A stretch of 64,000 nt of DNA, taken from NCBI GenBank assembly GCA_001772615.1, contig MEUZ01000003.1, positions 350,433 through 414,432 of the forward strand. The letters are read 5' to 3'. Shown here piece by piece: positions 2,151 to 64,000 of this stretch. The translations under genes and the position numbers were made by a program. The notes beneath the pieces are model-generated. The model was not told the DNA's origin. It ran no database searches and saw only the letters and a list, made by a program, of their open reading frames with translations. Position 1 is the first letter of the stretch. Every line of letters begins with the position of its first letter. Source of the DNA: a candidate division WWE3 bacterium RIFCSPHIGHO2_01_FULL_40_23 (GTDB lineage: Bacteria > Patescibacteriota > WWE3 > UBA101185 > 2-01-FULL-41-18).

Positions 2151-3878
2151 ATGAAGATAAACAAATCGCAGAAAAAATTCATTAAGGCAAACTATAAATA
2201 CCTAACCGCAAAAGAGCCCGCGGAAAAAACGGGGTTAACGGAAAAAGAAATAAATGACCACTTTAAAAAGGAAGGCATGAGGGAAAAGCTGGCTGCTTTA
2301 GACGTAGGAAATATTTTCAAACCAACCTCAATTTCAGAAATCAGGGACTTCTTAATTGAAAACTTCGGTACGATTCTGCTTCTTACCATCACAACTTTTC
2401 TGGTCTTTGCAAACTCGCTTTTAGGGCAGTTTGTATCCGATGATATCGGAGGGTACAGAGACCATCCTTCAGTCAGAGAGCCAATACTTTCACCAAACAA
2501 CTTTTACTCACAAATGATTTTTTACAGAATAATGTTTCGGATTTTTAATCTTGACCCTGTACCTCTTCACTTATCGTCGCTTCTTATACATATTGCTGCT
2601 GTAATCCTTACTTTTATCCTCATTTCAGCTATATTCGGAAAGAGGATCGGGGTAATTTCATCGCTTCTTTTTGCTACCCACCCCGTCAACTCGGAGGCCG
2701 TTGCATGGATTTCATCCCTCAACTACCTTATAAACGGAGCCGTGTTTGGTATAACCTCCCTTCTTTACATACTCTATAGAAATTCGCTTAATAAAAAATA
2801 TCTCCTTTTCTCGCTTGGTTTCTTTTCTTTTTCGGTTTTTTTCACAACAATCCCATGGATTATAACTATCCCGCCTCTCCTTCTTATAATTGATCAATTT
2901 TTCCTTGAAAAAAAGTTTTCTTTTAAAAAAGTTCTTACTATTTCTTTATTTGTTATTCCCATAGCACTCTTTTGGGTATTAAAGGCAGGGTGGATAAGCG
3001 ACAGGGTAATACAAGTTAAGAGCTCCAGAGAGAATCCTTACTCAAACACTCCTTATATAGCAGGCGCCGCATATACGGTAGAAAAAAGCCTTGAACTTCT
3101 TGTATTCCCCAGGGACCTCACCCTTTACCATGAAGGCGAAATAATAGAAAAAACCTACCTTTACTTTATGTACTTTGTAACCGGATCCTTGCTTTTCTTA
3201 TCTGTAATTTTGGTGAGGAAAGGAAGAAAAGTGTCGGGGTTGATCTTATTTTTCATTGTTTCTTTAGGACCGGCCTTAAGCCCGATTCACGTAGCATGGT
3301 ACGCTGCCGAAAGATATATTTACATTGGCTCAATTGCATTCACAGCTCTTTTGGCAATGATATTTCTAAAACTTGAGGAAATTTCCGGAAGGAGAAACAC
3401 GGCGCTGATCCTTACAGGAATACTTGTTTTTGCTTACTCTGTTAGAACTATTATGAGAAACGCTGAATGGCAGACCCCGAAAAAACTTTGGCTTGCAACT
3501 GACAGAGTTTCCCCAAGAAGCCCCAAAGTGCATAACAATCTTGGAGATATTTATTCGCAGGAAGGAAACTTGCAAAAATCCGCCGAAGAATTCTCAAAAG
3601 CAATTTTACTTTCTCCCGAATACACAGATGCCATCCATAACCTTGGGGTAACCTATATCAAAGCCCAAAGATATGACCTTGCAAAACAGGCGCTTTTAAG
3701 AGTTGTTCAAATTGACCCGTACATGGCTCCCGCCTGGGTTAAACTTGGGGCGCTAGAATTCGGAGAAGGAAATAACGACAAGGCAATAGAGTATTTTGAG
3801 AACGCTCTTAAAGCAGATCCGAATAACCAGGACGCTAAAAAACTTCTGGAGAGAATCTTAACTCCTAAACTTCAATGA
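2151..3878 (+). CDS. Multi-pass membrane protein with C-terminal TPR repeats; putative GT-C (PMT/ArnT-like) glycosyltransferase
   Basis: 575 aa. The N-terminal roughly 420 aa is hydrophobic with many TM segments. The C-terminus carries TPR-like repeats (NLGDIYSQEGNLQKSAEEFSKAI..., NLGVTYIKAQRYDLAKQAL..., KLGALEFGEGNNDKAIEYFENALKADPNN). Confidence 0.6.
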   Translation: MKINKSQKKFIKANYKYLTAKEPAEKTGLTEKEINDHFKKEGMREKLAALDVGNIFKPTSISEIRDFLIENFGTILLLTITTFLVFANSLLGQFVSDDIGGYRDHPSVREPILSPNNFYSQMIFYRIMFRIFNLDPVPLHLSSLLIHIAAVILTFILISAIFGKRIGVISSLLFATHPVNSEAVAWISSLNYLINGAVFGITSLLYILYRNSLNKKYLLFSLGFFSFSVFFTTIPWIITIPPLLLIIDQFFLEKKFSFKKVLTISLFVIPIALFWVLKAGWISDRVIQVKSSRENPYSNTPYIAGAAYTVEKSLELLVFPRDLTLYHEGEIIEKTYLYFMYFVTGSLLFLSVILVRKGRKVSGLILFFIVSLGPALSPIHVAWYAAERYIYIGSIAFTALLAMIFLKLEEISGRRNTALILTGILVFAYSVRTIMRNAEWQTPKKLWLATDRVSPRSPKVHNNLGDIYSQEGNLQKSAEEFSKAILLSPEYTDAIHNLGVTYIKAQRYDLAKQALLRVVQIDPYMAPAWVKLGALEFGEGNNDKAIEYFENALKADPNNQDAKKLLERILTPKLQ

Positions 3879-5577
3879 TGCTGACAAGGACCAAAGGCTC
3901 TCTTCCCGTCTTTTTATATAAAAACCTTGAAAGGGCTTTTTCAAGGTTTGATCTGAAAAGCCCCTTGTTCCCATAATCTTTTTTATTCTGACTAAACGCA
4001 TTTCTTACAACATTTGAGGCATCACTGATAAGACTTTGGGATTCTTTCACATAAATAAAGCCTCTTGTTAATATATCAACCGCATTTATCTCCTTATCTT
4101 TTTTAACAGTCACTACTGCCGCCATAATCCCATTTGTTGAAAGGACATTTCTGTCTTCAATAACTTTTTCACCCACATCCCCAACAAGTCTCCCGTCAAC
4201 ATATACATTGGATAAACTTAACCTTTCTCCCTTTTTAGAAGTCCCTCCTGAAAGTAAAATAGAATCCCCTTCAAGAAGCTCAAAGATATTTTCCTTTTTT
4301 ACCCCCATATCCGAAATCATATTTGCATAAGCCCTCATATGCCTTACTGTACCTCCTATTGGCATATAATATTTAGGTTTGCATAAAGCGGCCATTAGTT
4401 TAAGATCACCCTTTAAGCCATGTCCTGAAACGTGCAAATTTCCCTGAATTTCAGATTCAATTACAACCGCTCCATTTAAGATTAATCTGTCTATGAGAGT
4501 TTCCACATCATCTCTGACTCCGGGAGGGTTCGGGTCGGCCGAGAAAACAACATAAGCTCCGTCTAAAAGCTCAATATCCTTATGCTCTCCACGTGAAATT
4601 CTGCCAATTGCCGACTCCGGCTGGCCGTAAGCGCCCGCCACAATATACATAAGTTCAGATTGATTAAATCTTCTGCTTTTTTCTTTGGGGATAAAGGTAT
4701 CCTGGGGAAAGTTAAGATACCCAAGTTTTATTGCAACCTCAACAACCTGGTCAATAGCCCGACCGGAAAAAACCACCTTTCTTCCATGCTTTACCGCGCT
4801 TGAAATAGCCTGCTCAAGCCTTGAGACGTTTGAAGAGACTGTAGTCACAAAAAACTGCTTGCCGTGAGCCGCTTCAAGTAAGGAATCAAAGGAGTCTTCT
4901 ATTGTCTTTTCACTTCTTGCATACCCTTCGGTTGTTGCACCCAAACAGTCGGATAAGAGAAGGGTAACCCCGTTTTGACAAAGCCTTGACACTTTTGCTA
5001 CGTCAAAAGGTTTATCCAAGACAGGTGTCCAGTCAAACTTGTAGTCGGCGCAATGAATTACCATTCCCTGCGGGGTATCAATTGAAATACCGCATGAGTC
5101 TGGAACCGAGTGGTTAACCCTGAAATAATCTACTTTAAAAGGACCAACAGCAACCGGACCTCCTTCAGGATCAACCATCCTTAAACTTGTTCCCGAAAGC
5201 ATATCTTTTTCTTTTAACTTTACCTGTATCAAACCCTGAACAAGCCTTGTCGCGAAAACTGGCATTTTAAGGTCTTTTAAAACAAAAGGTATAGCCCCAA
5301 TATGATCGTCATGCCCATGTGTTACAAATAAAGCTTTAACCTTATGGGAATTTTCAAGTAAGTAGGTAATATCAGGAAGAACGACATCAACCCCAAGCAT
5401 TTCAGCATCAGGAAACCCAATCCCGCAGTCAACGATAATTATGTCGTCACCGTATTCATAAACAGTCATGTTTTTGGTGACGCCCGTTGTCCCGCCAAGA
5501 GTTAAAATTTTTAACGGCAGCTTACCCGAGGTGTTTTGTGAAAACTTCTCCCCTTCCTGCAAAAACTTAAATTTCAT
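3865..5577 (-). CDS. rnj: Ribonuclease J (metallo-beta-lactamase / beta-CASP)
   Basis: 570 aa. Contains ILTLGGTTGVTKNMTVYEYGDDIIIVDCG and THGHDDHIGAIPF (the HxHxDH motif); length and domain order match RNase J. Confidence 0.85.
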   Translation of the reverse strand: MKFKFLQEGEKFSQNTSGKLPLKILTLGGTTGVTKNMTVYEYGDDIIIVDCGIGFPDAEMLGVDVVLPDITYLLENSHKVKALFVTHGHDDHIGAIPFVLKDLKMPVFATRLVQGLIQVKLKEKDMLSGTSLRMVDPEGGPVAVGPFKVDYFRVNHSVPDSCGISIDTPQGMVIHCADYKFDWTPVLDKPFDVAKVSRLCQNGVTLLLSDCLGATTEGYARSEKTIEDSFDSLLEAAHGKQFFVTTVSSNVSRLEQAISSAVKHGRKVVFSGRAIDQVVEVAIKLGYLNFPQDTFIPKEKSRRFNQSELMYIVAGAYGQPESAIGRISRGEHKDIELLDGAYVVFSADPNPPGVRDDVETLIDRLILNGAVVIESEIQGNLHVSGHGLKGDLKLMAALCKPKYYMPIGGTVRHMRAYANMISDMGVKKENIFELLEGDSILLSGGTSKKGERLSLSNVYVDGRLVGDVGEKVIEDRNVLSTNGIMAAVVTVKKDKEINAVDILTRGFIYVKESQSLISDASNVVRNAFSQNKKDYGNKGLFRSNLEKALSRFLYKKTGREPLVLVSIIEV

Positions 5578-16372: not shown

Positions 16373-16430
16373 ATCTTACTGTTATTGTAGCAACAAAAAC
16401 CTACAATGGCAACCGAAACAAATGGGAAAT

Positions 16431-24078: not shown

Positions 24079-26004
24079 CTACTCAACAACCTCACCTTCA
24101 ACCGGGCCTTGACTGTCTGAATCAGAAGGCCCTCCTCCCGAACCACTTCCTCCTGATGGACCGGAAGAACCCGGACCTTCGGGACCCGTAGATGTTCCCG
24201 CCCCGGTCTGTCCCTGGCCGTACATGTACTGACCAATCTTTTGAAGGCTCGCAGACAAATCTGAAGTCTTATTTTTAAGCTCCGTTGCGTCAGCCGTTGA
24301 TAAAACATCCCGTATCCCTTTCACCTTATCTTCAATTTCCTTTTTTAAGTCGGCAGGAACTTTGTCTCCTGCATCCCTTAAAGACTTCTCCGCCGTATAG
24401 CAAAGGTTATCAGCCGTATTTCTGGCTTCTGCCAGTTCTTTTCTCTTTCTATCTTCTTCGGCGTGCGCCCCTGCTTCCTTTACCATCCTGTCAACCTCTT
24501 CTTTTGACAAACCCGTCCCTCCCTGTATCGTAATATGCTGTTCCTTATTGGTAGCCTTATCTTTTGCCTTCACGTTTAAAATCCCATTAGCGTCTATATC
24601 AAACGCAACCTCAACCTGCGGAACTCCACGCGGTGCGGGTGGAATCCCGTCAAGAATAAATCTTCCAAGACTTTTATTATCCGAAGCCATCTCTCGCTCT
24701 CCCTGCAAAACATTAACCTCAACCGAAGTCTGATTATCGGCAGCCGTTGAAAACACCTGTGAAGCAGACGTAGGAATGGTTGTGTTTCGCTTTATTAGAG
24801 GCGTCATTACACCTCCGAGTGTCTCAAGCCCAAGAGTCAGAGGCGTAACATCAAGAAGAAGGATATCTTTAACTTCTCCACCTAAAACACCCCCCTGAAT
24901 GGCGGCGCCAACGGCCACAACTTCATCAGGATTAACTCCCATGTGGGGCTCCTTTCCAAAAAAGTTTCTGACCGTCTCAACAACTTTAGGCATTCTTGTC
25001 ATACCCCCGACAAGAACAACTTCATCTATATCCTTAACCGTAACTCCTGCATCAGAAAGTGCACGTTCAATAGGAGAAACGGTTCTTTGAATGAGCCCAT
25101 CCATAAGCTGTTCCAGCTTAGCCCTGGTAAGCTTAACCTGAAGGTGCTTGGGGCCTGAAGAATCGGCAGTAATAAAAGGTATATTAATTTCAGTTTCCAT
25201 TACGGATGAAAGTTCTATTTTTGCCTTCTCCGCCGCATCCTTTAATCTTTGCAATGCCTGCCTGTCTTTTGACAAATCAATTCCATTCTCTTTTTTAAAC
25301 TCGGAGGTTAAAAAGTTAATTAAAACGTTGTCAAAATCATCACCTCCAAGGTGCGTGTCTCCATTGGTCGACTTAACTTCAAAGACCCCGTCTCCTATTT
25401 CAAGAACCGAAACGTCAAAAGTCCCCCCGCCAAGGTCATAAACACATATCCTCTCGTTTTTCTTTTTATCAAGGCCGTAAGCAAGGGATGCGGCCGTCGG
25501 CTCATTAATAATTCTTTTCACATCAAGCCCTGCAATCTGCCCCGCTTCCTTGGTCGCATTTCTTTGAGAGTCGTCAAAATAAGCGGGGACTGTAATAACT
25601 GCTTCAGTTACCACTTGACCAAGAAACGCTTCCGCATCCGCCTTTAATTTAGATAAAATTTTTGCTGAAATTTCTTGAGGAGTATAAATTGTGCCTTCTA
25701 TCTCAACGCAGGCAAGTCCCCCTTTCCCCTCAACAATGTTATACGGAAGCGCTTTAATAAGATTTTGAACTTCGGGGTCTGAAAACCTTCTTCCCATAAG
25801 TCTTTTGATAGAAAAAATAGTGTTTTTTGGATTTACTATCTGCTGTCTTTTAGCGGGCACACCAACCAGATTTTTGGAAGGATCAACAATTGAGGGTGTT
25901 GTATTCATCCCTTCTCTGTTTGGCATAACTTTAGGGGAACCTGCTTCCATAACGGCCATGCATGAATTTGTTGTTCCAAGATCAATTCCTATAATTTTTC
26001 CCAT
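24079..26004 (-). CDS. dnaK: Chaperone DnaK (Hsp70)
   Basis: [18 protein letters not shown], 641 aa, Gly-rich C-terminus. Confidence 0.95.
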
Positions 26005-26078
26005 ATAAAATCCTCCTTTAAGTAAAAGATAACTTCATTATAGAGTTGATATTCATTCTCCCTCTTCAAGAACAAATA

Positions 26079-26534
26079 TCAGCTTCCAATGGCTTTCCCT
26101 ACCTTAACTCTGGCGGGGCGGATAACTTTATCACGTATTTTATAGCCTTTTAATACCACCTCTATAACTTTATTATCTTCGCCTTCAACAATTTCCGAAG
26201 CTTCCATTGACGAAGGGTCAAAATCTTTTCCTAAAGCTTCTATTTCTTCCGCACCCTCATCCTTTATAATATCCGAAAGCTGTTTTGTAATAAGAGCCAA
26301 CCCCTGATCTGAAAGATGCTCGCAGAGGTTTTCAAGATTATCAAGAACGGGTATAAGCCTTTCAAGAAGAATAAAATTTGAAAATGCGACCACCGCTTCT
26401 TTTTCTTCATTAAATCTTCTCTCAAGATTTTTATAATCAGCCAAGGCTCTTTTCCAGCTTTCTTCGAGCTCTTTTACCTTTAAATCTTTTTCATTTTGTT
26501 TTTGATCGTTCTGATCTGAAATATTATTATCCAT
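26079..26534 (-). CDS. grpE: Nucleotide exchange factor GrpE
   Basis: 151 aa with a coiled-coil and beta domain. Located between hrcA and dnaK. Confidence 0.8.
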   Translation of the reverse strand: MDNNISDQNDQKQNEKDLKVKELEESWKRALADYKNLERRFNEEKEAVVAFSNFILLERLIPVLDNLENLCEHLSDQGLALITKQLSDIIKDEGAEEIEALGKDFDPSSMEASEIVEGEDNKVIEVVLKGYKIRDKVIRPARVKVGKAIGS

Positions 26535-27259
26535 TACCAGCTTGCACCTAACTCCTCAAGTAAACTTTTTACATATCTTACCGAAGGAACAATAGTTCCA
26601 TATGGCATTCTCGCAGGCCCTAAAACGGCGACCACGCCCGAATGCCTGCCAGATGAATAAGGCGCAAATACAATACAGCATGGTTTAAGATTTGTTAACC
26701 CCGTTTCCTCTCCAATTATAGTTTTTACGTCCTTATCCGAATGAGCTCTTTCAAAAATCTGATGCAAAATCTCATGGTTATCAAGAAGATGCAACGCAGC
26801 TTTAGCAACATCAATTTCCCAAAACTCTTTTTCATCCAAAACATTTACGCTTCCCGCATAAAATACATGCCCATCATAAGTTGTGGTTATTGCAAGTTTT
26901 TTAGTAAATTCAGAAAGGGCTATAGCCGCCTGTCTTAAAAGTTTTTCAAATTCAAATCTTACAGGCCAGAGCTTTTGCTTCATGGCTACTTCCTGAAGGA
27001 TTGGAAGCTCGGATTCATCAAGGAGCTGATCAACGTAAAATCTAAACCCCATAGTAGTTGGAGTTCTGCCTGCTGAAGTATGCCTCATTTCAAGAAAACC
27101 CTTTTTAATAAGATCCACCATTTCATTTCTTACGGTTGCGGCTGAAACTTTAAGCTTATACTTTTCAACAAGCTTCTGCGACCCAACGGCATCGGACGAA
27201 TCTATATACTCCTGAATAATGGCTTTTAGAAGACCTACCTGCCTTTCCGAAAGATCCAT
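26534..27259 (-). CDS. hrcA: Heat-inducible transcription repressor HrcA
   Basis: The N-terminal wHTH MDLSERQVGLLKAIIQEYIDSSDAVGSQKLV is typical of HrcA. Heads the hrcA-grpE-dnaK operon. Confidence 0.8.
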   Translation of the reverse strand: MDLSERQVGLLKAIIQEYIDSSDAVGSQKLVEKYKLKVSAATVRNEMVDLIKKGFLEMRHTSAGRTPTTMGFRFYVDQLLDESELPILQEVAMKQKLWPVRFEFEKLLRQAAIALSEFTKKLAITTTYDGHVFYAGSVNVLDEKEFWEIDVAKAALHLLDNHEILHQIFERAHSDKDVKTIIGEETGLTNLKPCCIVFAPYSSGRHSGVVAVLGPARMPYGTIVPSVRYVKSLLEELGASW

Positions 27260-27426
27260 AAGTGTGTATGTTGCACGGCGCTTGAGCAGTAAACCCCCGG
27301 CAAAATAAAATTTAATAAATTAAGTTTTCACTTATCAGTATTATATTTAGAGTGCCAACTTGTCAAGAGCTAAGTTTGAGGATGTTGTTGATTTAAAGCT
27401 TATAGTAAACTATGATTGTTTGTAAC

Positions 27427-28116
27427 ATGAATTTTCACATCATCACGCTCTTTCCTGAAATGTTTGAGGGGGTATTTGAGCGCTCGCTTATAAAAAGAGC
27501 CAGAGAGAAAGGGATCATTAACATAAACCTTATCCAGCTAAGAGATTTTGCTATTGATAGGCATGGGACGGTTGACGACAAACCATACGGCGGCGGTGTT
27601 GGGATGCTCCTTATAGCAAAACCTATTTTTGATGCCGTCAGATCTGTTTATCCAAGTGCCGGTAACCCTTCCGAAAAATCAACAAATAAGAGAGTGATAC
27701 TTCTTTCACCAAGAGGAGAAAAGCTTTCACAGGAAAAGGTTAAAAAGCTTTCAAAGCTTTCAGAAATAATTTTAATTTGCGGAAGGTATGAAGGCGTTGA
27801 TGATAGGGTTCACAGCCTTTGCGATGAAGAGATTTCAATCGGGGACTATGTGCTATCCGGAGGTGAGATACCGGCAATGGTTTTAGTGGACTCTGTATCA
27901 AGACTTATTAAAGGCGTTTTAATAAAAGAGGAAGCTTTAAAAACTGAATCATTTACAAACGGCGTAATTGAATTTCCCCAGTATACAAGGCCAGAAAATT
28001 TTGAGGGTATGAAAGTCCCTGAAATTTTATTATCGGGAGATCATAAAAAAATTGAGGACTGGAAAAAAGAGCAGGCAAGAAAACTTACAAAAGATAAAAG
28101 ACCCGACCTTTTATAG
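27427..28116 (+). CDS. trmD: tRNA (guanine37-N1)-methyltransferase TrmD
   Basis: MNFHIITLFPEMFEG... is the SPOUT TrmD signature. Start taken at the second ATG. Confidence 0.85.
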   Translation: MNFHIITLFPEMFEGVFERSLIKRAREKGIININLIQLRDFAIDRHGTVDDKPYGGGVGMLLIAKPIFDAVRSVYPSAGNPSEKSTNKRVILLSPRGEKLSQEKVKKLSKLSEIILICGRYEGVDDRVHSLCDEEISIGDYVLSGGEIPAMVLVDSVSRLIKGVLIKEEALKTESFTNGVIEFPQYTRPENFEGMKVPEILLSGDHKKIEDWKKEQARKLTKDKRPDLL

Positions 28117-28215
28117 AGATTGCTTCGCTACGCTCGCAATGACTTTGTTAACATTCCCGTCATTGCGAGGACCCGCCTCTCAAGCGAGGCGAGAGGGCGG
28201 GGACGAAGCAATCTA
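28117..28215. repeat. Nested GC-rich palindromic element R1
   Basis: The outer inverted repeat is gattgcttcg...cgaagcaatc. Inner inverted repeats are ctcgcaatgac/gtcattgcgag and ccgcctctc/gagagggcgg. Confidence 0.6.
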
Positions 28216-28280
28216 GCCCATTTATCTGATTTGAAAAAATTTCCTGTTGTTGTAGACTAAAACTCCAAAGGAGACGACCA

Positions 28281-28640
28281 ATGAACGGCAAACCAAAGGC
28301 AGTTCTGTTTTTGGATTCGAACGAGTCTTACTTGCGTTTTTGGAAGTATGAGCTAAGAAGCGTATTACATGTCCTCACCGCCCAAACCACGAGGCAAGCT
28401 AAAGAGGTTTTCAACCAAAACAACGGCAAGTACAACATTATTGCCATTGTAATTGACGTGGGGGTGGACAAATTTCCAGAGTTCCTAGCGTTCATTAAAA
28501 AAAGTGCAGGGTACATAGGCGAAATAATCGCCACAGCTAGCACCTTCAATGAATATCAACGCTTTTTAAGGCTTGATTTCACCGTGGGTGTTATTAAGAC
28601 TGACGCAGCCGACAAGATCCGAGAGCTTGCACACAAGTAA
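28281..28640 (+). CDS. Hypothetical protein, possibly receiver-domain-like (higher GC)
   Basis: 119 aa. The VLFLDSNESY...IIAIVIDVG pattern resembles a CheY-like fold. Weak call. Confidence 0.35.
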   Translation: MNGKPKAVLFLDSNESYLRFWKYELRSVLHVLTAQTTRQAKEVFNQNNGKYNIIAIVIDVGVDKFPEFLAFIKKSAGYIGEIIATASTFNEYQRFLRLDFTVGVIKTDAADKIRELAHK

Positions 28641-28649
28641 CTCTCTATC

Positions 28650-28682
28650 ACCCGTTTGCCACCAAAAGCAAGCGGGTTTTTT
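28650..28682 (+). terminator. Intrinsic terminator
   Basis: Stem acccgtttgc/gcaagcgggt, then TTTTTT. Confidence 0.6.
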
Positions 28683-28721
28683 AATTTGACACTAAAATAC
28701 ATAGTAGTATCATTAACCGCA

Positions 28722-30308
28722 ATGGAGATAAAAAGATCAGCGCTTTACCTCTTTTTCTTATCCTTATTTTTTTTAGTCTTTATATACGGTAACAAAGCTT
28801 TTGGGATGGCTATCATTTATCCGGAACCTTACCCCGTTTTTACCAATGAACAAAAAGCCGTAATTTACTATGACGAAAAAACCGGAATGGAAACTCTTGT
28901 TGCGTCAACAACCTTCAGAGGTGAAGCTAAAGATTTCGGTTGGATTATCCCAACACCTTCAAAACCAGAGGTTACCGCAGTTAAAGATGATATCTTCACG
29001 GCGCTTGATGCCCTCACGCAACCTAAGTATGATTACCCGGCACCTGTTATGCCCTTGTATTCACTATCAGGTCTTTCTGTATCCGAAAGGGCGGTAGATA
29101 CCGTTAAAGTTTTAGAAACCAAAAACGTTGATGTTTATACCACAACTATAGTTGAAGCCAACGATAAAGAATCTCTTTTAAAATGGCTTGAAGAAAATAA
29201 TTACAAAGTTTCAAAAAGTATGGAGTTTGTTCTTAATGATTATGTTAATAAAAACTATTACTTCGTTCTTGCCAAAATTAATACTGAAGCCTTAGGAGCT
29301 TTTGTTTCAGGCCAGCTTAAAGAAGGTCATATTAATCCCCTTAAAGTAACTTTTGCAACCAAAAATATTATTTATCCATTAAGACTAACGGGCGCGGGAT
29401 CATATCAGGAAGCAGGGAGAAAAATTGCGGCATACTCCTTTGAGCAAGGTATGGAAGGCTGGTGGATTGACTACGCAACCTACAAACCCTCATCTCAACC
29501 GGGGGCATCTTCAGAACCCGTACAGGTTGCCCCTAATACTGCGCTATCAACAGATTTCTCCAAACACGGCACTTACTCACTAAAGATCACAGGACAAAAT
29601 GCAACAAGCCTTAAAACTACTGTGTCAGATCTGACGCCCGGGACTCAATATGTACTATCGGCATATGTCAGAAGCAAAAACCCTGTATCGGGAAATGCCT
29701 TGCTAAGAGTAGAGGGCGGAAATTTATACCTTAAATCAGCGCCTCTTTCCTTAAGAGAGTTGGCAGATTGGAAAAAGTTGGAGCTTCCTTTTGCCGCAAC
29801 TTCAACCTATCACGAGCTTTACCTTACCGTAAGCGATATGAGTACGGAAGGAGAAATATATTTTGATGTGATACAGCTTGAGGAAGGCAGCGTCTCAACC
29901 GAATTCACGCAGGAAAAACTTCCTAACCAGGGAAAGTATCAAAACTATTATTCAAACTCGGCAACTGTTTTATTGTATGTAATTGCCAATCACAAAAAAG
30001 ATGTTCCGGGTTTTACAACAGCATACGCGGGCTGGGTTAAGGAAGATAAGCTTGAAAAACTTTCAACTCTTGACAGCGGGGAGCCGTGGATGAATTTCAC
30101 GGGAAGGAAGTATCTTACAAAACTTTCAAGGTACATGCCCTATTCACAAATGAATAATGATCTTGTTATTAATAATGCCGAGAACAATAATCCTGTCGGA
30201 ACCGGTGAGGTTTATCTTCAGAAGCCTTTTAGATTTTTATTCGTTATCATTCTTCCTATAGCGCTTGAAGTTGCATTAATTGTATACTTTATTAAAAGGA
30301 GGAAATAA
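28722..30308 (+). CDS. Secreted/membrane-anchored protein, DUF2330-like N-terminal domain with a carbohydrate-binding-module-like region and a C-terminal TM anchor
   Basis: Signal peptide MEIKRSALYLFFLSLFFLVFIYG. A GWIIPTP motif. A beta-rich region SLKITGQNATSLKTTVSDLTPGTQYVLSAYV... A C-terminal hydrophobic helix followed by KRRK. Confidence 0.5.
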   Translation: MEIKRSALYLFFLSLFFLVFIYGNKAFGMAIIYPEPYPVFTNEQKAVIYYDEKTGMETLVASTTFRGEAKDFGWIIPTPSKPEVTAVKDDIFTALDALTQPKYDYPAPVMPLYSLSGLSVSERAVDTVKVLETKNVDVYTTTIVEANDKESLLKWLEENNYKVSKSMEFVLNDYVNKNYYFVLAKINTEALGAFVSGQLKEGHINPLKVTFATKNIIYPLRLTGAGSYQEAGRKIAAYSFEQGMEGWWIDYATYKPSSQPGASSEPVQVAPNTALSTDFSKHGTYSLKITGQNATSLKTTVSDLTPGTQYVLSAYVRSKNPVSGNALLRVEGGNLYLKSAPLSLRELADWKKLELPFAATSTYHELYLTVSDMSTEGEIYFDVIQLEEGSVSTEFTQEKLPNQGKYQNYYSNSATVLLYVIANHKKDVPGFTTAYAGWVKEDKLEKLSTLDSGEPWMNFTGRKYLTKLSRYMPYSQMNNDLVINNAENNNPVGTGEVYLQKPFRFLFVIILPIALEVALIVYFIKRRK

Positions 30309-30934
30309 TGGCTCTTGCTACGGTGGCGCCCTATACATACATGAATCCCTATGATTTTATCGGCCCGGTAATAGTTCTTGGAGCATTAATACTCTTGGTT
30401 GGAGCAGGATACCTTATTCTTAAATTTATACTTGGCGGTGGGACCGTCTCATCTAAAATTGAATCCGCTAAAAGAGGCTATTATTATCTACTTTCTTTTA
30501 TCACTCTTTCAATCCTCTACTTTGCGGCATCGGACACCTTGAGTCTTTTACTCTCAACCATTACAGGGTCTAATTACTACGGGTACTCATATGAAAATTT
30601 CGCAAGGGGAATTGCCTTAAGAGCGGCAGTACTCATTGTTGTCCTCCCGGTTTATATTTACCACTGGTTTGCCGCCTCAAAACAGGTTCTCTCGCCAGAT
30701 GAAGAGGTAAGAAGCTTTGCGCAAAGGGAAAGAAAAGGGTACGTCCAAATAGTTCTTACTTTTTCAACAATAATACTTATTATTACAGGTGTCAGATTTA
30801 TTTATCTTCTATTGCTTCTTGGCCTTGGTGTTTCGGGAGTTGAACTGTCAAGTTTTACCATGCCGTTTTCATATTCTCTTGGGATTCTTGCCATCTGGCT
30901 TTACCATTTAAAGATCCTAAAAGAAAATTCCTGA
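30308..30934 (+). CDS. Multi-pass membrane protein, hypothetical
   Basis: Its ATG overlaps the stop of the previous ORF (taATGg). About 6 TM helices. Confidence 0.5.
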   Translation: MALATVAPYTYMNPYDFIGPVIVLGALILLVGAGYLILKFILGGGTVSSKIESAKRGYYYLLSFITLSILYFAASDTLSLLLSTITGSNYYGYSYENFARGIALRAAVLIVVLPVYIYHWFAASKQVLSPDEEVRSFAQRERKGYVQIVLTFSTIILIITGVRFIYLLLLLGLGVSGVELSSFTMPFSYSLGILAIWLYHLKILKENS

Positions 30935-30978
30935 AATCTTTCCGAAAGACTTGTTTTTTCATCCACCTTTAAAACCGT

Positions 30979-31007
30979 TTGACATTTAAACTATGCGTTG
31001 ATATATA
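30979..31007 (+). promoter_or_regulatory. Sigma70-type promoter (TTGACA, 17-nt spacer, TATATA)
   Basis: ttgaca 30979-30984, a 17-nt spacer, tatata 31002-31007. Confidence 0.6.
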
Positions 31008-31014
31008 TAAATCA

Positions 31015-31223
31015 CACGGCACCTCCTTGCCGGAGTCAATGTCGATTGGGTGGTTGCTCCCAAAGTAACCACCCAAACTAATAACCCACAGATCCGACTT
31101 CAAAAAGAAGGATCTGTTTACAGTGCGGCCCACCAGGTTTTGCTGTCCGCGAGAGGCCCGCAAAACCTGACACCGAAGAGGGGACCTATGAGTGCTTTCG
31201 CATCCAGGGTCCCCTATTTTGTA
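31015..31223 (+). ncRNA. Candidate small non-coding RNA (about 210 nt), family unassigned
   Basis: Bounded by a consensus promoter and an intrinsic terminator (ggggacc...ggtcccc plus TATTTTGT at 31178-31223). Contains internal hairpins gggtggtt/aaccaccc, agatcc/ggatct and ggttttgc/gcaaaacc. No convincing ORF. It lies in a convergent intergenic region. Confidence 0.45.
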
Positions 31224-31224
31224 C

Positions 31225-31290
31225 GTCATTCCTGCGAAAGCAGGAATCTGGAGATCCCAGGTCATCCGCCAGCTGGCGGACGGGATGACA
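31225..31290. repeat. Palindromic repeat family copy R2
   Basis: gtcattcctgcgaaagcaggaatctggagatcccaggtcatccgccagctggcggacgggatgaca. Confidence 0.65.
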
Positions 31291-31300
31291 TAAAGTCAGT

Positions 31301-33139
31301 TTAAGAAGACAAAACACTTCTAAAAGCTTCTTGCGGGATGTCAACTTTTCCAAATCTCTTTAAACGTTTTTTTCCTTCTTTTTGCTTTTCAAGAAGTTTA
31401 TCCTTTCTTTCCCTATGTCCACCTGACATTTTCTTTAAAACATCCTTTCTTACTGCGGGAATATTTTCCCTTGCAATAATCTTTCCCGAAATTGCCGCCT
31501 GGAGAGATATTTCAAACTGGTGCTTTGGAATTACATTTTTTAACTTTTCCAGAACGCTCCTTCCATACTTTTGCGCGCTCTCCGCGACAACAATTTGAGA
31601 AAGGGGACCAACAATTTCTCCATGAACCAAAATATCAAGCTTTACGGCGTTAACAGGGCGATAATCCAAAAAGTCATAATCAAGACTTCCAAATCCCGAG
31701 GATACTGACTTAAGCTCATCAAAAAAGTTTAATATAAGCTCTGAAAGCGGAAGTTCGTATGCAAGTGTCACCTTTTTTTCAGAGAGGTAATCCATCCTTT
31801 TTAAAACACCTCTATGATTTTCGCAAAGCTCTATAACTCTTCCGAGAAAATCGGTCGGGACAAAAATTGATATTTTAATCCAAGGCTCATAAATTTCCTT
31901 GATCTCCGAAATAGATGGCATTTGAGACGGGGAATCCACTTCAACTTCGGATCCCTCATTAAGTTTGACTTTATATGAAACGTTAGGTATTGAGGAAATA
32001 AGATTTAAATTGTACTCGCGCTCAAGTCTTTCCTGCACTACTTCGGCGTGAAGTAAACCAAGAAAGCCGCATCTGAATCCAAAGCCAAGGGCTGATGAAG
32101 ACTCCGGCTCAAAAGAAAGGGAAGAATCTGACAGGCTTAATTTCAAAAGAGCTTCCCGCAGTGCCGGGAATTTATCATTTTCTGTAGGGTAGAGTGATAG
32201 AAATACAAAAGGCTTTACTTCCTTGTAACCCGGTAGGGCTTCTGAAGTAGTTTCGGTTTTGAGGGGAATGTCCCTGTCTAAAACTACAGTATCTCCAACC
32301 CTCACCTTTTTTATTTCCTTTAAACCTGTTGCAATATACCCAACTTCGCCTGCAGAAAGAATTGAAGCCTTTTTCCTTTGCGGAGAGAAAAATCCAATCT
32401 CTTCAGGAAAAGAGCCAACTCCCGTCGCAAGAAATCTAATTTTCTCTTTCTTTAAAGTATCCTCTTGTGAGATCTTCCCATCAACCACTCTCACTAGTGC
32501 AACAACCCCGAGGTATTCATCAAAAAAGGAATCAAAGATCAAAGCCCTGAATGGACCGTCCTCCTTTCCTGAAGGCGGTGGAACTCTTTTAATTATCTCC
32601 CTTAAAAGATTTTCCGTATTCTGCCCGGTTTTTGCGGAGACAAAAACAATATCTTCTTTTTTAAAACCTAAAGTTGAAACTAAATCTTTCGCAACTTTTT
32701 CAGGCTCGGATGAAGGAAGGTCAATTTTATTTACAACCGGAATTATCGTTAAACCTGCTTCCATTGCCTTATAAACATTTGACAAGGTTTGGGCTTCTAT
32801 ACCCTGCGTTGCGTCCACAACCAAGACCGTGCCTTCGCACGCGGCAAGTGACCTTGAAACTTCATATGAGAAGTCAACGTGCCCCGGTGTGTCAATAAGG
32901 TTAAGTTCGTAGGTCTCCGACTTTTCGGGGGTGTAAAACATCCTAACGGCCTTCAACTTTATTGTGATGCCCTTCTCCCTCTCAAGGTCCATGCTGTCAA
33001 GAGTCTGCTCACGCATCTCCCTTTTATCTAAAGTTTTAGTAATCTCAAGAAAGCGGTCCGCCAAAGTTGACTTCCCATGGTCAATATGGGCAATAATGCA
33101 AAAATTCCTTATATTCTTTGGAGAAATACCTTCCCGCAT
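31301..33139 (-). CDS. lepA: Elongation factor 4 (LepA)
   Basis: NIRNFCIIAHIDHGKSTLADRFL. Start placed at MREGISPKNIRNF. The ORF track extends further 5'. Confidence 0.9.
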   Translation of the reverse strand: MREGISPKNIRNFCIIAHIDHGKSTLADRFLEITKTLDKREMREQTLDSMDLEREKGITIKLKAVRMFYTPEKSETYELNLIDTPGHVDFSYEVSRSLAACEGTVLVVDATQGIEAQTLSNVYKAMEAGLTIIPVVNKIDLPSSEPEKVAKDLVSTLGFKKEDIVFVSAKTGQNTENLLREIIKRVPPPSGKEDGPFRALIFDSFFDEYLGVVALVRVVDGKISQEDTLKKEKIRFLATGVGSFPEEIGFFSPQRKKASILSAGEVGYIATGLKEIKKVRVGDTVVLDRDIPLKTETTSEALPGYKEVKPFVFLSLYPTENDKFPALREALLKLSLSDSSLSFEPESSSALGFGFRCGFLGLLHAEVVQERLEREYNLNLISSIPNVSYKVKLNEGSEVEVDSPSQMPSISEIKEIYEPWIKISIFVPTDFLGRVIELCENHRGVLKRMDYLSEKKVTLAYELPLSELILNFFDELKSVSSGFGSLDYDFLDYRPVNAVKLDILVHGEIVGPLSQIVVAESAQKYGRSVLEKLKNVIPKHQFEISLQAAISGKIIARENIPAVRKDVLKKMSGGHRERKDKLLEKQKEGKKRLKRFGKVDIPQEAFRSVLSS

Positions 33140-33197: not shown

Positions 33198-33539
33198 CTA
33201 CTTCTTTCTGAAGGGAAACGCAAACCTTAACGGGAGGAAAAAATGAATTCCCGCAAGAGTCATAACCACGGCATTGGCGACCGAAAGCGTGAAGCCGGGT
33301 TTATACTCAACATAATTAAGCGTAAAAGTCGGAAGGATTGCCCCCCAAAGAAAAATCTTGGAGATAAACCTTGCCGCTTTTCCGCTATTCTGACTGGCCC
33401 AGATCCCAATCGCTCCTAAAACATAAGCTATGGGGCGATAGTCTGAAAATGACCTGGCTACGAGCACCCCAGCAAAAAACATCAGAACTCCAAGTAGAAC
33501 AGGACCTAAAAGGTCCCTGTCAAATGAGGTCCTCTTCAT
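33198..33539 (-). CDS. Small membrane protein, hypothetical
   Basis: 113 aa, about 3 TM helices, slightly higher GC. Confidence 0.4.
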   Translation of the reverse strand: MKRTSFDRDLLGPVLLGVLMFFAGVLVARSFSDYRPIAYVLGAIGIWASQNSGKAARFISKIFLWGAILPTFTLNYVEYKPGFTLSVANAVVMTLAGIHFFLPLRFAFPFRKK

Positions 33540-42747: not shown

Positions 42748-42930
42748 AGCAGGATAAATTCCTTTAAAACTGTGCCTTTAATTATAGTCCAAACCTTGAC
42801 CAAGTACATAAACCTATAGTGCAAATGAGAATTCCTTAACTGTAGGTTGACCCACTATCCAATCAATATTACAATATATATTGTACATACAGCTTCTACC
42901 AAATCAACAACCCCCAATAAATGCACCTAG

Positions 42931-43264
42931 ATGGTTTATGAAATTGATCAATCGGGAAAAATTGAGGACACTTCGAAGGATACTGTCCTTTGCATATCAA
43001 ATGGCTATTACTTATCAGTTAAATTAAAGGCGAAGACTAAAAGGCAGTTACAGAAAATATTTAGAAAAAACGGCCAAACTAGAAATTAAGAACGAATGCG
43101 ACCCGGATATTCATTTTAACTCAATAGGTAAGAAGTCAAGAGCACACCTGCGAGCTAAGGAAGTAGCAAAAGGAAAAATTAAACCTAAAAAAATTGTAAG
43201 CCTTAAGGATATTTTAAGAGAGCTTAATGTGACCGAGGTCGGTAAACGACTTGCGAATGCTTAA
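42931..43264 (+). pseudogene. Possible frameshifted small ORF (two adjacent reading frames of about 52 and about 60 codons)
   Basis: MVYEIDQSGKIEDTSKDTVLCISNGYYLSVKLKAKTKRQLQKIFRKNGQTRN* is followed in the +1 frame by ...KLEIKNECDPDIHFNSIGKKSRAHLRAKEVAKGKIKPKKIVSLKDILRELNVTEVGKRLANA*. Promoter-like TTGACC..TATAGT boxes lie upstream. Confidence 0.3.
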
Positions 43265-43358
43265 GCCAGAGCTGATTTTGCAACAAGTGCAAACTACACC
43301 TTCTGTGGGTCGGCATCCACTCGGTCAAGAAACAATATAGCAATATCCGTTGCTTCAG

Positions 43359-44475: not shown

Positions 44476-44590
44476 TGTCATTCTGGCGAAAGCCAGAATC
44501 TAAAATGGTCATCGCGAGTCCACCAGCCGGCGGACGTGGCGATCTCTAGAGATTGCTATTCGAACTTCGTTCGAACGCTCGCAAAGACAA
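44476..44590. repeat. Palindromic repeat family copy R3 (compound)
   Basis: tgtcattctggcgaaagccagaatct...gattgctattcgaacttcgttcgaacgctcgcaaag. The second half resembles R1. Confidence 0.6.
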
Positions 44591-50039: not shown

Positions 50040-50085
50040 AATTCAGGATCTACAGTGAGATACCTGCTTTCGCAGGAATGGCAGA
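50040..50085. repeat. Palindromic repeat family copy R4 (reverse orientation)
   Basis: cctgctttcgcaggaatggcag is the reverse complement of the cattcctgcgaaagcagg core. Confidence 0.6.
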
Positions 50086-52953: not shown

Positions 52954-52982
52954 ATAACTAGAAATTACTGAAATTAATGTTC

Positions 52983-53102
52983 TGTCATCCTGAACTGACT
53001 TTATGTCATGCCGGACCTGATCCGGCATCTATAATCCTAGATTCCCGCTTTCGCGGGAATGACACTTGATTCGTGTTGGAGCTTAGACCCTGCTTTCGCA
53101 GG
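52983..53102. repeat. Palindromic repeat family copy R5 (compound, TIR-bounded)
   Basis: tgtcatcc...catgccggacctgatccggcat...ctagattcccgctttcgcgggaatgaca, then cctgctttcgcagg. Confidence 0.65.
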
Positions 53103-53143
53103 AACAGACCTAACAAACCACCAACAAAAAAGGCCAGCTGTAA

Positions 53144-53440
53144 TTACTCAACTGGCCCAAGGTTTCTACCGCAACCGGGACAAATCCAATTCCCATGCTT
53201 ATTTACAGGAAGGGAAAAGCAATCCAGTCCAGAGCACATCGGCCGCAACTTCCTCCTAACTTCAGCCGGGGCAAGCCTTATCCCTGCTGCAGGTGTTTCC
53301 ACAGCGAAAACCCTTTTCGCAGCTTTAGTTGGCACACGCATTCTGCTTTGGTGATGTTCACCCCGATCACAGTCAGTACAAAATTCGCCATTATCTGCGA
53401 CCTTGTTTCTGCAACCGCACGAACAAGCGCAAGTTGCCAT
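53144..53440 (-). CDS. Cys-rich small protein (zinc-ribbon-like), hypothetical, higher GC
   Basis: MATCACSCGCRNKV...CTDCDRGEHH...CPGCGRN. A strong RBS gaaggaaggagaaagatc precedes the ATG. Confidence 0.5.
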   Translation of the reverse strand: MATCACSCGCRNKVADNGEFCTDCDRGEHHQSRMRVPTKAAKRVFAVETPAAGIRLAPAEVRRKLRPMCSGLDCFSLPVNKHGNWICPGCGRNLGPVE

Positions 53441-53530
53441 GATCTTTCTCCTTCCTTCGTATAGTATTTTTAAAATTATAAAACTCTTATCCGTTTTAGC
53501 AAGTCAATTCTAGATGCTATACTTTTGCGG

Positions 53531-62571: not shown

Positions 62572-64000
62572 CTACGGAGTCCCTTTTTTATACACATTCA
62601 AAATCTTCACACCATCAGCCCAAACAGAATGTACCTCCTCAAAACTCTCGGGAACTACTACTTCACCCCTAAAATTAGTCACATAATAATCCGGCTCTTT
62701 GGTTTTCTGGCTTACATCAAGCCTTTTTCTGTCCGGCTCCGGAAGGATCAGGGTGTTATTTTTCCCCGGGTAATTCGCCACTTTAACTTTTATCTTATCC
62801 CTGTCATCGGTTCTCACTATATATTCAAGACCCTTTCTGTAGGAAAGCCCCCAATAATCAAGATCAAACCTTTGCCCGATTGTGCTTTTTTCACCCGCAA
62901 AAACATTAAAGTACATATTCTCAAAAGGGTGATTTCTGTACATAAAACCTAAAGCTAAAAGCGCGTTAACCAACACCGCAAGAATAAGAGCTCGTTTTAA
63001 GAAAAAGCCAGAAGCATTAACCGCGAAAGTCAGAATATACACAAAAGCCGGGTATATAAAAAAGAGCTGGCGCCATTCATCATATAAAACAGACTTTAAA
63101 AGTATTACTGAAAGAAGAGGAACAAAAAACCAAAGCAAGATAAGCATGTCTTCTTTTCTTAAAGAACTTCGTTTATAGACAAAATAAAAAAGCCCTAGAC
63201 AGAAAACAAAAATATAAGCTGGTGGGATGGTAACAAGCATCCATCCGGGAGCATAATAAAAAGGCAAATTTACGCTTTCTATCTTCTTTCCGTAAAAAAG
63301 CATTTCAGTTGGCTGCGGGTAATATTTAAAAGCTTTAATAAAGTTTCCGACAGGGTTTTCCCAAAGAGTGGGCCAGAATAAAACGGTAAAAATAGCTGTA
63401 ACCAAGACATAGACAACCAACGGTTTTAATTCCTGCTTTAGCAAGGATAAACTTAAGCCTGAATCTATAATTGTCATCCCGGGCTTGACCCGGGATCTAG
63501 ATTCCCGCTTTCGCAGGAATGACAGTGTATACGGTAATAAAACCCCGCTTGAGATAAAGAGGGCAACAAAAAAGGGGATTAAAACGCCAAGAATCCTTGT
63601 GTCAATTAAAACAGCAGAAGTAAAAGCCAGAATAAACGCGCTAAAGTAACTTCTCTTATCCAAAAACTGTAGTACAAAATAAACGTTTATTATAAAAAAC
63701 GACAAAAAAACCATATCTTTTGAGTTATAAAAAGAGTGGGCAAAAAGCCTTGGAGTTAAAACCAAAACCGCGCTTCCAAGAAGTGAAAGCCACGTGCCAA
63801 ACCTTTTTCTTAATAACAAAAAGAAGAACAAAACACCGGCATATTGCGTCATAAAAGTTAGAAAGTGCCTTGAAAAATAAATTTCCCGTGAGTCGCTTAA
63901 ATTAAATATTTTTTGAGCACCTACCAGAAAAACTTCAAAAACGGGGCCGTAAAATTTATCTATTTTATCAAGAGGTTTCTTGTCTCTTAGAAAAACATGA
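62572..64000 (-). CDS. GT-C fold (PMT/ArnT-like) membrane glycosyltransferase, 5'-partial; contains an in-frame repeat insertion
   Basis: The reading frame is open through 64000 upstream of the listed Met. It is multi-TM. An 18-aa insert LSFLRKRESRSRVKPGMT is encoded by repeat R6. Confidence 0.6.
   Translation of the reverse strand, partial: HVFLRDKKPLDKIDKFYGPVFEVFLVGAQKIFNLSDSREIYFSRHFLTFMTQYAGVLFFFLLLRKRFGTWLSLLGSAVLVLTPRLFAHSFYNSKDMVFLSFFIINVYFVLQFLDKRSYFSAFILAFTSAVLIDTRILGVLIPFFVALFISSGVLLPYTLSFLRKRESRSRVKPGMTIIDSGLSLSLLKQELKPLVVYVLVTAIFTVLFWPTLWENPVGNFIKAFKYYPQPTEMLFYGKKIESVNLPFYYAPGWMLVTIPPAYIFVFCLGLFYFVYKRSSLRKEDMLILLWFFVPLLSVILLKSVLYDEWRQLFFIYPAFVYILTFAVNASGFFLKRALILAVLVNALLALGFMYRNHPFENMYFNVFAGEKSTIGQRFDLDYWGLSYRKGLEYIVRTDDRDKIKVKVANYPGKNNTLILPEPDRKRLDVSQKTKEPDYYVTNFRGEVVVPESFEEVHSVWADGVKILNVYKKGTP
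63472..63525. repeat. Palindromic repeat family copy R6, 54 nt, inserted in-frame in a CDS
   Basis: tgtcatcccgggcttgacccgggatctagattcccgctttcgcaggaatgacag; near-identical to the right half of R5. Confidence 0.7.

Follow-up and report, generated by a model that had tools for sequence, protein, structure and literature searches.

A hairpin-rich, species-specific insertion between the converging DUF5671 and lepA genes of a candidate division WWE3 bacterium may encode a small RNA

The genes for a DUF5671 membrane protein and for LepA converge on an intergenic spacer in the 64-kb stretch of DNA analysed here (the window, to which all positions refer; Table 1), as the initial annotation of this stretch had described. 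The LepA protein shows 100% identity to the elongation factor 4 recorded for candidate division WWE3 bacterium RIFCSPHIGHO2_01_FULL_40_23. The same protein is also on record from RIFCSPLOWO2_01_FULL_41_18, and the contigs that carry the region stem from Rifle groundwater assemblies (ENA, JGI, Logan). The region is identical in at least five independent assemblies from these three sources, hence the sequence is real and an assembly artefact is excluded. Two further assemblies (L086, L087) are identical apart from a population SNP, T31210C, which turns an A-U pair of the last hairpin described below (H5) into A.C on the plus strand and would yield G.U on the minus strand. Two independent short assemblies of the organism (L088, L089) stop within the second hairpin (H2), at window positions 31071 and 31080; low coverage is one possible cause, a co-occurring strain with a different sequence beyond this point another. 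The NCBI locus tags in this neighbourhood are A2716_05020 (DUF2330), A2716_05025 (DUF5671) and A2716_05035 (113-aa protein), a numbering that leaves room for lepA only, so that the spacer is without an annotated feature. The G+C content of the candidate stretch is 0.50-0.55 versus approximately 0.38-0.40 in the flanks, a rise of about 12-15 points. The GC skew has no switch near 31 kb, for which reason a replication origin or terminus was rejected, and no CRISPR or tandem array is present.

The spacer contains a highly structured segment, an observation that is real and statistically striking. The plus strand of 31010-31225 folds with a minimum free energy (MFE) of -87.9 kcal/mol (z = -7.69), an energy that not one of 200 dinucleotide shuffles reached. 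The minus strand reaches -87.3 to -88.9 kcal/mol (z = -4.65), making the total folding energy about equal on both strands. When all 200-nt segments of the 64 kb were scanned with correction for G+C content, the locus ranked first on the plus and second on the minus strand. Hairpins with a perfect stem, defined by at least eight perfect pairs including at least four G-C pairs, number about 17 in 64 kb, and four of them lie within 31046-31247. Both the MFE and the centroid structure consist of five consecutive local stem-loops, H1-H5, in agreement with the several internal hairpins noted earlier; long-range pairing is marginal and absent from the centroid. The terminal loops on the plus strand read CCUCCU, CCCAA, CAAA, GCGAGA and UUUC from H1 to H5 and measure 4-6 nt, while the whole apical regions span 5-19 nt. 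The starts of H2 to H5 and of the next repeat (31046, 31088, 31134, 31180 and 31225 for this count) follow each other at a regular distance of 42-46 nt. G.U pairs give H2 and H5 an extra 2-4 kcal/mol of stability on the plus strand over the minus strand, an asymmetry that does not settle which strand is used.

Table 1. Features of the DUF5671-lepA spacer and related sites of the window. Hairpin energies are given in kcal/mol for the plus / minus strand.
Feature	Position	Strand	Description
DUF5671 membrane-protein gene	30308-30934	+	last of the row trmD, 119-aa, DUF2330, DUF5671
Spacer between the DUF5671 and lepA stops	30935-31300		366 nt; contains the candidate RNA
ORF, 98 aa	30969-31265	-	runs through the hairpins and the neighbouring repeat
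-35-like hexamer	30979-30984	+	TTGACA, exact consensus
Extended -10-like element	30999-31007	+	TG-A-TATATA (TG 30999-31000, TATATA 31002-31007); 17 nt past the -35
Predicted transcript	31014-31223	+	about 209 nt; start at about A31014-A31016, judged from the -10 position
H1	31017-31032	+	5-bp stem CGGCA/UGCCG, loop CCUCCU; -7.6 / -7.1
Mini-ORF, 9 codons	31039-31068		GGAG 3 nt ahead of the ATG at 31039
H2	31046-31076	+	13-bp stem (one G.U), loop CCCAA, perfect 10-bp core; -20.7 / -16.9
ORF, 84 aa	31050-31304	+	runs through hairpins, terminator and dispersed repeat
H3	31088-31117	+	8-bp stem, 2x2 internal loop, 3-bp tip; -13.5 / -13.4
H4	31134-31169	+	perfect 10-bp stem, 16-nt apical region; -18.6 / -18.6
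H5	31179-31215	+	GC-rich stem-loop, then the U-rich tail; -23.0 / -20.8
U-rich tail	31215-31222	+	TATTTTGT / UAUUUUGU; begins with the last base of H5
Copy of the dispersed palindromic repeat	31225-31316	-	composite, about 93 nt; aligns to 52977-53063 and 63485-63523
lepA	31301-33139	-	converges on the DUF5671 gene
Further copies of the repeat family	52977-53063, 63485-63523	+	
Related palindromes	28117-28215, 44480-44499, 50058-50080		
Sites combining -35 and TG (-35 starts)	30979 (+), 35262 (+), 43362 (-), 16412 (-)		four in the window
-10 hexamers of these sites	31002, 35284, 43339, 16389		31002 belongs to the candidate

The segment carries signals at both ends. At its 3' end, the GC-rich stem plus TATTTTGT that the initial annotation had pointed out was recovered as H5 and its tail, a sequence that has the features of an intrinsic terminator, namely a stable hairpin followed by UAUUUUGU. 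H5 with its U-tail is therefore probably an intrinsic terminator, predicted to be bidirectional because the tail on the minus strand is UCUUCGGUGU. A simple terminator scanner did not list H5, owing to its loop limit of 3-8 nt; the scanner did list H1 on the minus strand plus TGTGATTTAT as terminator-like. Between the DUF5671 stop codon and the promoter-like site, a single hairpin worth only -2.1 kcal/mol was found. As there is no convincing terminator after DUF5671, the upstream mRNA probably reads into the element, and H5 probably serves as terminator of the DUF5671 mRNA, of any promoter-derived RNA and of the converging lepA transcript.

At the 5' end, TTGACA, the 17-nt spacer and TATATA all lie where they had been placed before, and a TG was found in addition, which makes this an extended -10 element. 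TATATA agrees with TATAAT in four of six positions and is without the final T, the reason why the scanner did not list the promoter; the site is a consensus-level prediction. In the 64-kb window, 36 matches of at least 10/12 were counted, versus 29.3 +/- 5.6 in shuffles, hence they are barely enriched, and the promoter match taken alone constitutes weak evidence. A -35 of at least 5/6 combined with TG was found at only four sites, all of them intergenic and upstream of transcripts (the -10 scan used a cut-off of 5/6, under which the candidate's -10 at 31002 fell). The site at 16412 directly precedes rpsO. Since all four sites are intergenic and one lies before rpsO, this promoter class is credible in this genome. 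The candidate, with a 10/12 consensus match plus TG, belongs to this intergenic-only class, yet its grade is near chance level. As a side observation, a 611-nt gene-free spacer between gap (GAPDH) and pgk (window 42748-43358, minus strand) starts with a TTGACT-17-TATATT promoter-like site (43362-43334) that is preceded by TG. This spacer lacks any ORF above 52 aa as well as an Rfam match, and could be a long leader or a further non-coding transcript.

We traced synteny through LepA homologues and their contigs and obtained six WWE3 loci, three near and three more distant ones. The three nearest relatives (LepA 73-75% identical) retain the MurJ-LepA gene order, and the gene that converges on lepA is DUF5671 in two of them and trmD in the third. 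In L090 and L092, this gene and lepA overlap by 12-34 nt, and in L093 they are 11 nt apart. In the three more distant WWE3 loci (L169-L171), hrcA-grpE-dnaK follow lepA on the same strand after a gap of 42-67 nt. Thus, none of the six loci has a comparable spacer after lepA (at most 67 nt, or an overlap), indicating that the 366-nt spacer is a species-specific insertion. Approximately 290 nt of it, the promoter region and the RNA, are unique, and the last approximately 76 nt are repeat. This comparison with relatives is the main new result of our analysis. In the near relatives and in the source genome, an inverted block (trmD to DUF2330-DUF5671, window 24079-30934) sits between lepA and hrcA-grpE-dnaK, a rearrangement that made the 3' end of lepA convergent. 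In L092, murJ and lepA are separated by 490 nt (3511-4000) in which no gene was called but which, by eye, contain an open frame of about 100 codons; the matching place in the window holds the gene of the 113-aa membrane protein (33198-33539).

A LepA search of genome contigs gave only cross-phylum matches of 52-55% identity, of no use for synteny, and for a LepA fragment with 83% identity (P0003) no contig is recorded. Clustering at 90% placed only start-codon variants from this organism, and no closer strain, with LepA, DUF5671, DUF2330 and the 113-aa protein. When the element was used as query, short-word BLAST and a covariance model built from the candidate sequence and its five hairpins (R1) recovered only the element itself in the window and the six related loci. 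Within the 64 kb, 31014-31223 is single-copy according to a repeat finder, BLAST with word size 7 and the covariance model. A two-loop pattern gave 33 matches in a metagenome contig scan, none with extended similarity, which we read as chance; the source sequence is absent from that collection. In viral contigs, the H4 pattern found no match and the H2 pattern 40, all of them unrelated hairpins, and blastn against phage GenBank returned no relative. Conservation and covariation, as expected of an independent sRNA gene, were thus found neither at the six related loci nor in any search, and with no homologue a covariation test is not possible.

The insertion adjoins a dispersed repeat, whose copy at 31225-31316 overlaps the final 16 nt of lepA. 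Similarity to the other copies breaks off precisely at GGAATGAC, which is two bases away from the U-tail. Judged from these sequence boundaries, the repeat is distinct from, and no part of, the candidate RNA. The repeat family consists of short GC-rich palindromes with GTCAT...ATGAC-type ends that lie after gene ends and are partly joined into the ~93-nt unit. H1-H4 are without these ends and have no counterpart in the window, and H5 shares only a 10-nt apical core, TGCTTTCGCA, with the family. Related copies thus exist for 31225-31316, while 31014-31223 has no second copy within 64 kb. The copy at 52977 starts with 16 nt that resemble the last codons and stop of lepA (TGTTYTGTCWTCYTRA), which suggests either a duplication of one copy that took part of lepA along or a repeat origin of the lepA stop. 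Beside these repeat copies, in the spacer 52954-53524, we noticed a small cysteine-rich ORF starting MATCACSCGCRNKVADNGEFCTDCDRGEHHQSRMRVPT at about 53140-53441 (minus strand), where no gene is listed.

We tentatively favour the view that the segment is an orphan, species-specific non-coding RNA of about 209 nt on the plus strand. It would arise from a promoter of its own, by processing of the 3' end of the DUF5671 mRNA, or in both ways, with a terminator probably shared with lepA; we rate this reading at somewhat less than an even chance. The analysis shows the sequence signals, the exceptional fold, a single copy in the window, absence from relatives and no sign of coding, whereas transcription, strand, ends and pairing mechanism of this RNA are inferred. 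Transcription would start near 31014 from the TTGACA and TG-extended -10, just past the DUF5671 stop codon. Because the DUF5671 gene lacks a convincing terminator of its own, the same segment would probably double as the 3' end of the DUF2330-DUF5671 mRNA, a layout like that of sRNAs that are embedded in a 3' UTR and have a promoter of their own. The RNA is predicted to fold into the five consecutive stem-loops, of which H5 with UAUUUUGU would terminate it and probably also stop the converging lepA transcript. Its most likely activity would be base-pairing regulation by the exposed C-rich loops CCUCCU of H1 and CCCAA of H2 (within CUCCCAAAG), which could pair with G-rich ribosome-binding sites. 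Positions 31020-31028 of H1 (CACCUCCUU) are identical over 9 nt to the anti-Shine-Dalgarno sequence, the universal tail at the 3' end of 16S rRNA. This match was noticed after the fact, and the 9-mer CACCTCCTT occurs only here in the window when both strands are counted, with 0.57 occurrences expected in 128 kb. We consider it improbable that this anti-Shine-Dalgarno copy in the 5' hairpin, together with the second C-rich loop, competes with ribosomes for Shine-Dalgarno sites and acts as a broad translational brake in this ultra-small, host-dependent bacterium, and so represents the first regulatory sRNA described in CPR/Patescibacteria. The best complementarity to other genes of the window, 15 nt between the H3 stem and the murT coding region, was judged to be chance.

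Several observations argue for a plus-strand sRNA. The promoter class is exclusively intergenic in the window, and only the hairpin of -2.1 kcal/mol lies between the DUF5671 stop and the promoter. The fold (z = -7.69) is top-ranked in 64 kb, and four of the approximately 17 perfect hairpins cluster here. H1-H4 and CACCTCCTT are unique in the window, and the element is distinct from the adjoining repeat. The G+C content is raised, and the long ORFs have neither a Pfam match nor a credible homologue. The plus strand in particular is favoured by the U-tail after H5, by the greater stability of H2 and H5, and by the position of H1-H4 beyond the terminator that the lepA transcript meets first. On the other hand, the sRNA reading is weakened because no homologue exists anywhere we searched, and hence neither covariation nor conservation; because promoter-grade matches are barely more frequent than in shuffles and the -10 lacks its final T; and because the apical core of H5 is common to selfish-looking palindromic repeats. 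The assignment to the plus strand suffers from folding energies that are about equal on both strands and from T31210C, which weakens H5 on the plus but not on the minus strand. The interpretation as a lineage-specific sRNA is thus reasonable but unproven. Of this suggestion, made in the initial annotation, lineage specificity holds, given the absence from six related WWE3 loci and the lack of a homologue in our searches; the sRNA part is the best single reading, while a passive cluster of hairpins would account for the sequence almost equally well.

Such a passive cluster would be a REP/BIME-like palindromic insertion that provides structured mRNA 3' ends and acts at most as a bidirectional terminator, exonuclease block or insulator, with a fortuitous promoter match. 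This main rival is quite possible, although on balance we doubt it. The candidate region lies where REP/BIME-like repeats are expected, at a gene 3' end and in a convergent spacer. The spacer is a species-specific insertion at a site where the converging genes of the three nearest relatives overlap or lie 11 nt apart, it ends in a bona fide dispersed palindromic repeat, and H5 bears the family core TGCTTTCGCA. Tandem palindromes also occur in other intergenic regions, for example at 28117-28215, 52975-53130 and 63476-63523. The stems are perfect, and H3 and H4 fold equally well on both strands, as expected of young DNA palindromes; moreover, promoter-like matches are common and conservation is wholly absent. 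However, H1-H4 have no second copy or family resemblance in 64 kb and are without GTCAT...ATGAC ends. Five different strong hairpins exceed the needs of termination, relatives manage with overlapping gene ends, and the promoter-like site belongs to a class that is found only at upstream positions here.

Alternatively, the minus strand could be the functional one. The element would then form an extended, structured lepA 3' UTR with its end at H1(-) plus UGUGAUUUAUAUAUAU, and its G-rich, SD-like or GGA loops (AGGAGG, UUGGG, GGGAG) could titrate a CsrA-type RNA-binding protein or ribosomes. The minus-strand fold is about as stable in energy (-87.3 to -88.9 kcal/mol), if with a weaker z of -4.65, H1(-) is listed as terminator-like, T31210C keeps its pairing (G.U) on this strand only, and lepA has no U-tailed terminator ahead of H5. 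We nevertheless regard this as unlikely, since H5(-) with its tail UCUUCGGUGU would halt lepA transcripts before H4-H1 are reached. In addition, H2 and H5 are weaker on the minus strand, no minus-strand promoter was found besides lepA's own, and the six GGA triplets compare with about four expected from composition, only two of them being in terminal loops. A sponge of the CsrB/RsmZ type was rejected for either strand: the plus-strand loops are without repeated GGA, and on the minus strand GGA/GGGA occurs in only two terminal loops.

It is very unlikely that the locus encodes a small protein, be it the 84-aa plus-strand ORF, the 98-aa minus-strand ORF or the 9-codon mini-ORF. Open frames are present, and GGAG stands 3 nt before the ATG at 31039, but for an SD-like motif this spacing is too short. 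The plus-strand ORF 31050..31304 does exist and, as had been remarked, crosses both terminator and repeat; the two long ORFs run through hairpins, terminator and dispersed repeat alike. Neither has a Pfam match, and searches against 5.8 billion clusters and 1.84 billion representatives gave no credible homologue. The minus-frame ORF has zero protein matches, and the one match of the plus-frame ORF, P0121, is a tandem-repeat artefact, a junk protein. Gene callers called nothing in the spacer in any assembly. The earlier statement that the stretch has no credible ORF is therefore well founded.

That the element is a divergent 6S RNA or one of the other housekeeping RNAs (SRP, tmRNA, RNase P) is similarly hard to credit, even though a length of about 200 nt and a stand-alone layout of promoter and terminator would fit 6S RNA. 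No Rfam family reached its gathering score in the whole 64-kb window, and a search of 30850-31400 on both strands at E <= 10 with permissive filters gave only noise, without 6S, SRP, tmRNA or RNase P RNA. ARAGORN found no tmRNA. The initial failure to match the element to these four RNAs was thus reproduced, whereas its description as possibly 6S-like was not upheld: there is no Rfam family at E <= 10, and the fold is made of five independent hairpins, with neither an end-to-end closing stem nor a rod with a central bubble. Furthermore, relatives would be expected to share a housekeeping RNA, and they do not share the candidate.

We also consider very unlikely a TIGR-like guide-RNA array, in which variable stem-loops are processed into guides for a Nop-domain Tas protein. 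TIGR arrays have been described in phages and CPR bacteria, their stem-loops have non-repeated palindromic arms, and the hairpin of each unit encloses a pair of 8-12-nt spacers, both bordered by box C/D motifs (Faure et al. 2025, PMC12045711). The candidate does show variable palindromes at a regular spacing of 42-46 nt and ends in a terminator. Still, this reading is refuted in practice, because no Nop-domain/Tas protein was seen in the gene tables and Pfam scans, which extend over most of the 64 kb, and because terminal loops of 4-6 nt and apical regions of 5-19 nt are too small for two spacers plus box C/D; the units also share no short motifs.

We found no sRNA or 6S RNA described for WWE3 or CPR in the literature, and to our knowledge RNA-based regulation in CPR bacteria is almost unexplored. 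CPR genomes are tiny and encode few transcription factors, hence a bona fide sRNA, if true, would be a useful first example there. An anti-Shine-Dalgarno loop would be a concrete, testable mechanism. The candidate is confined to one uncultured species, and the locus illustrates how palindromic insertions remodel convergent gene ends.

Compared with known systems, the candidate resembles TIGR arrays (PMC12045711) in its tandem, non-identical palindromic units, their regular spacing, the terminator at the end and the occurrence of such arrays in CPR; it differs in the absence of a Tas (Nop-domain) gene from the scans and in hairpins too small to hold two spacers and box C/D. With 6S RNA (RF00013) it shares a length of about 200 nt and the layout of a candidate stand-alone transcription unit. 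Unlike 6S RNA, it has no covariance-model match and no rod-with-bubble structure and is not kept in relatives. Clusters of REP/BIME-type palindromic units are found at gene 3' ends in Enterobacteria. The candidate is similar to these and to the organism's own GTCAT...ATGAC repeats in its tandem GC-rich palindromes, its convergent spacer, the true repeat that adjoins it and the common core of H5. In contrast, H1-H4 are single-copy in 64 kb and have no consensus among themselves or with the family. Gram-positive base-pairing sRNAs such as RNAIII and RsaE of S. aureus and RoxS of B. subtilis aim C-rich loops at Shine-Dalgarno regions, and 3'-UTR-embedded sRNAs have their own promoter and share the terminator of the mRNA. 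sRNAs of these kinds measure 100-500 nt, contain several independent stem-loops and have their promoter just after or inside the upstream gene. We know of no RNA chaperone context in CPR bacteria. The candidate has no sequence or Rfam relationship to these sRNAs and no conservation, and its loops beyond H1 and H2 are not C-rich. By analogy, however, its size, its independent stem-loops, the C-rich loops CCUCCU and CCCAA, the placement of the putative promoter and the probably shared terminator would all be in line with this group of regulators.
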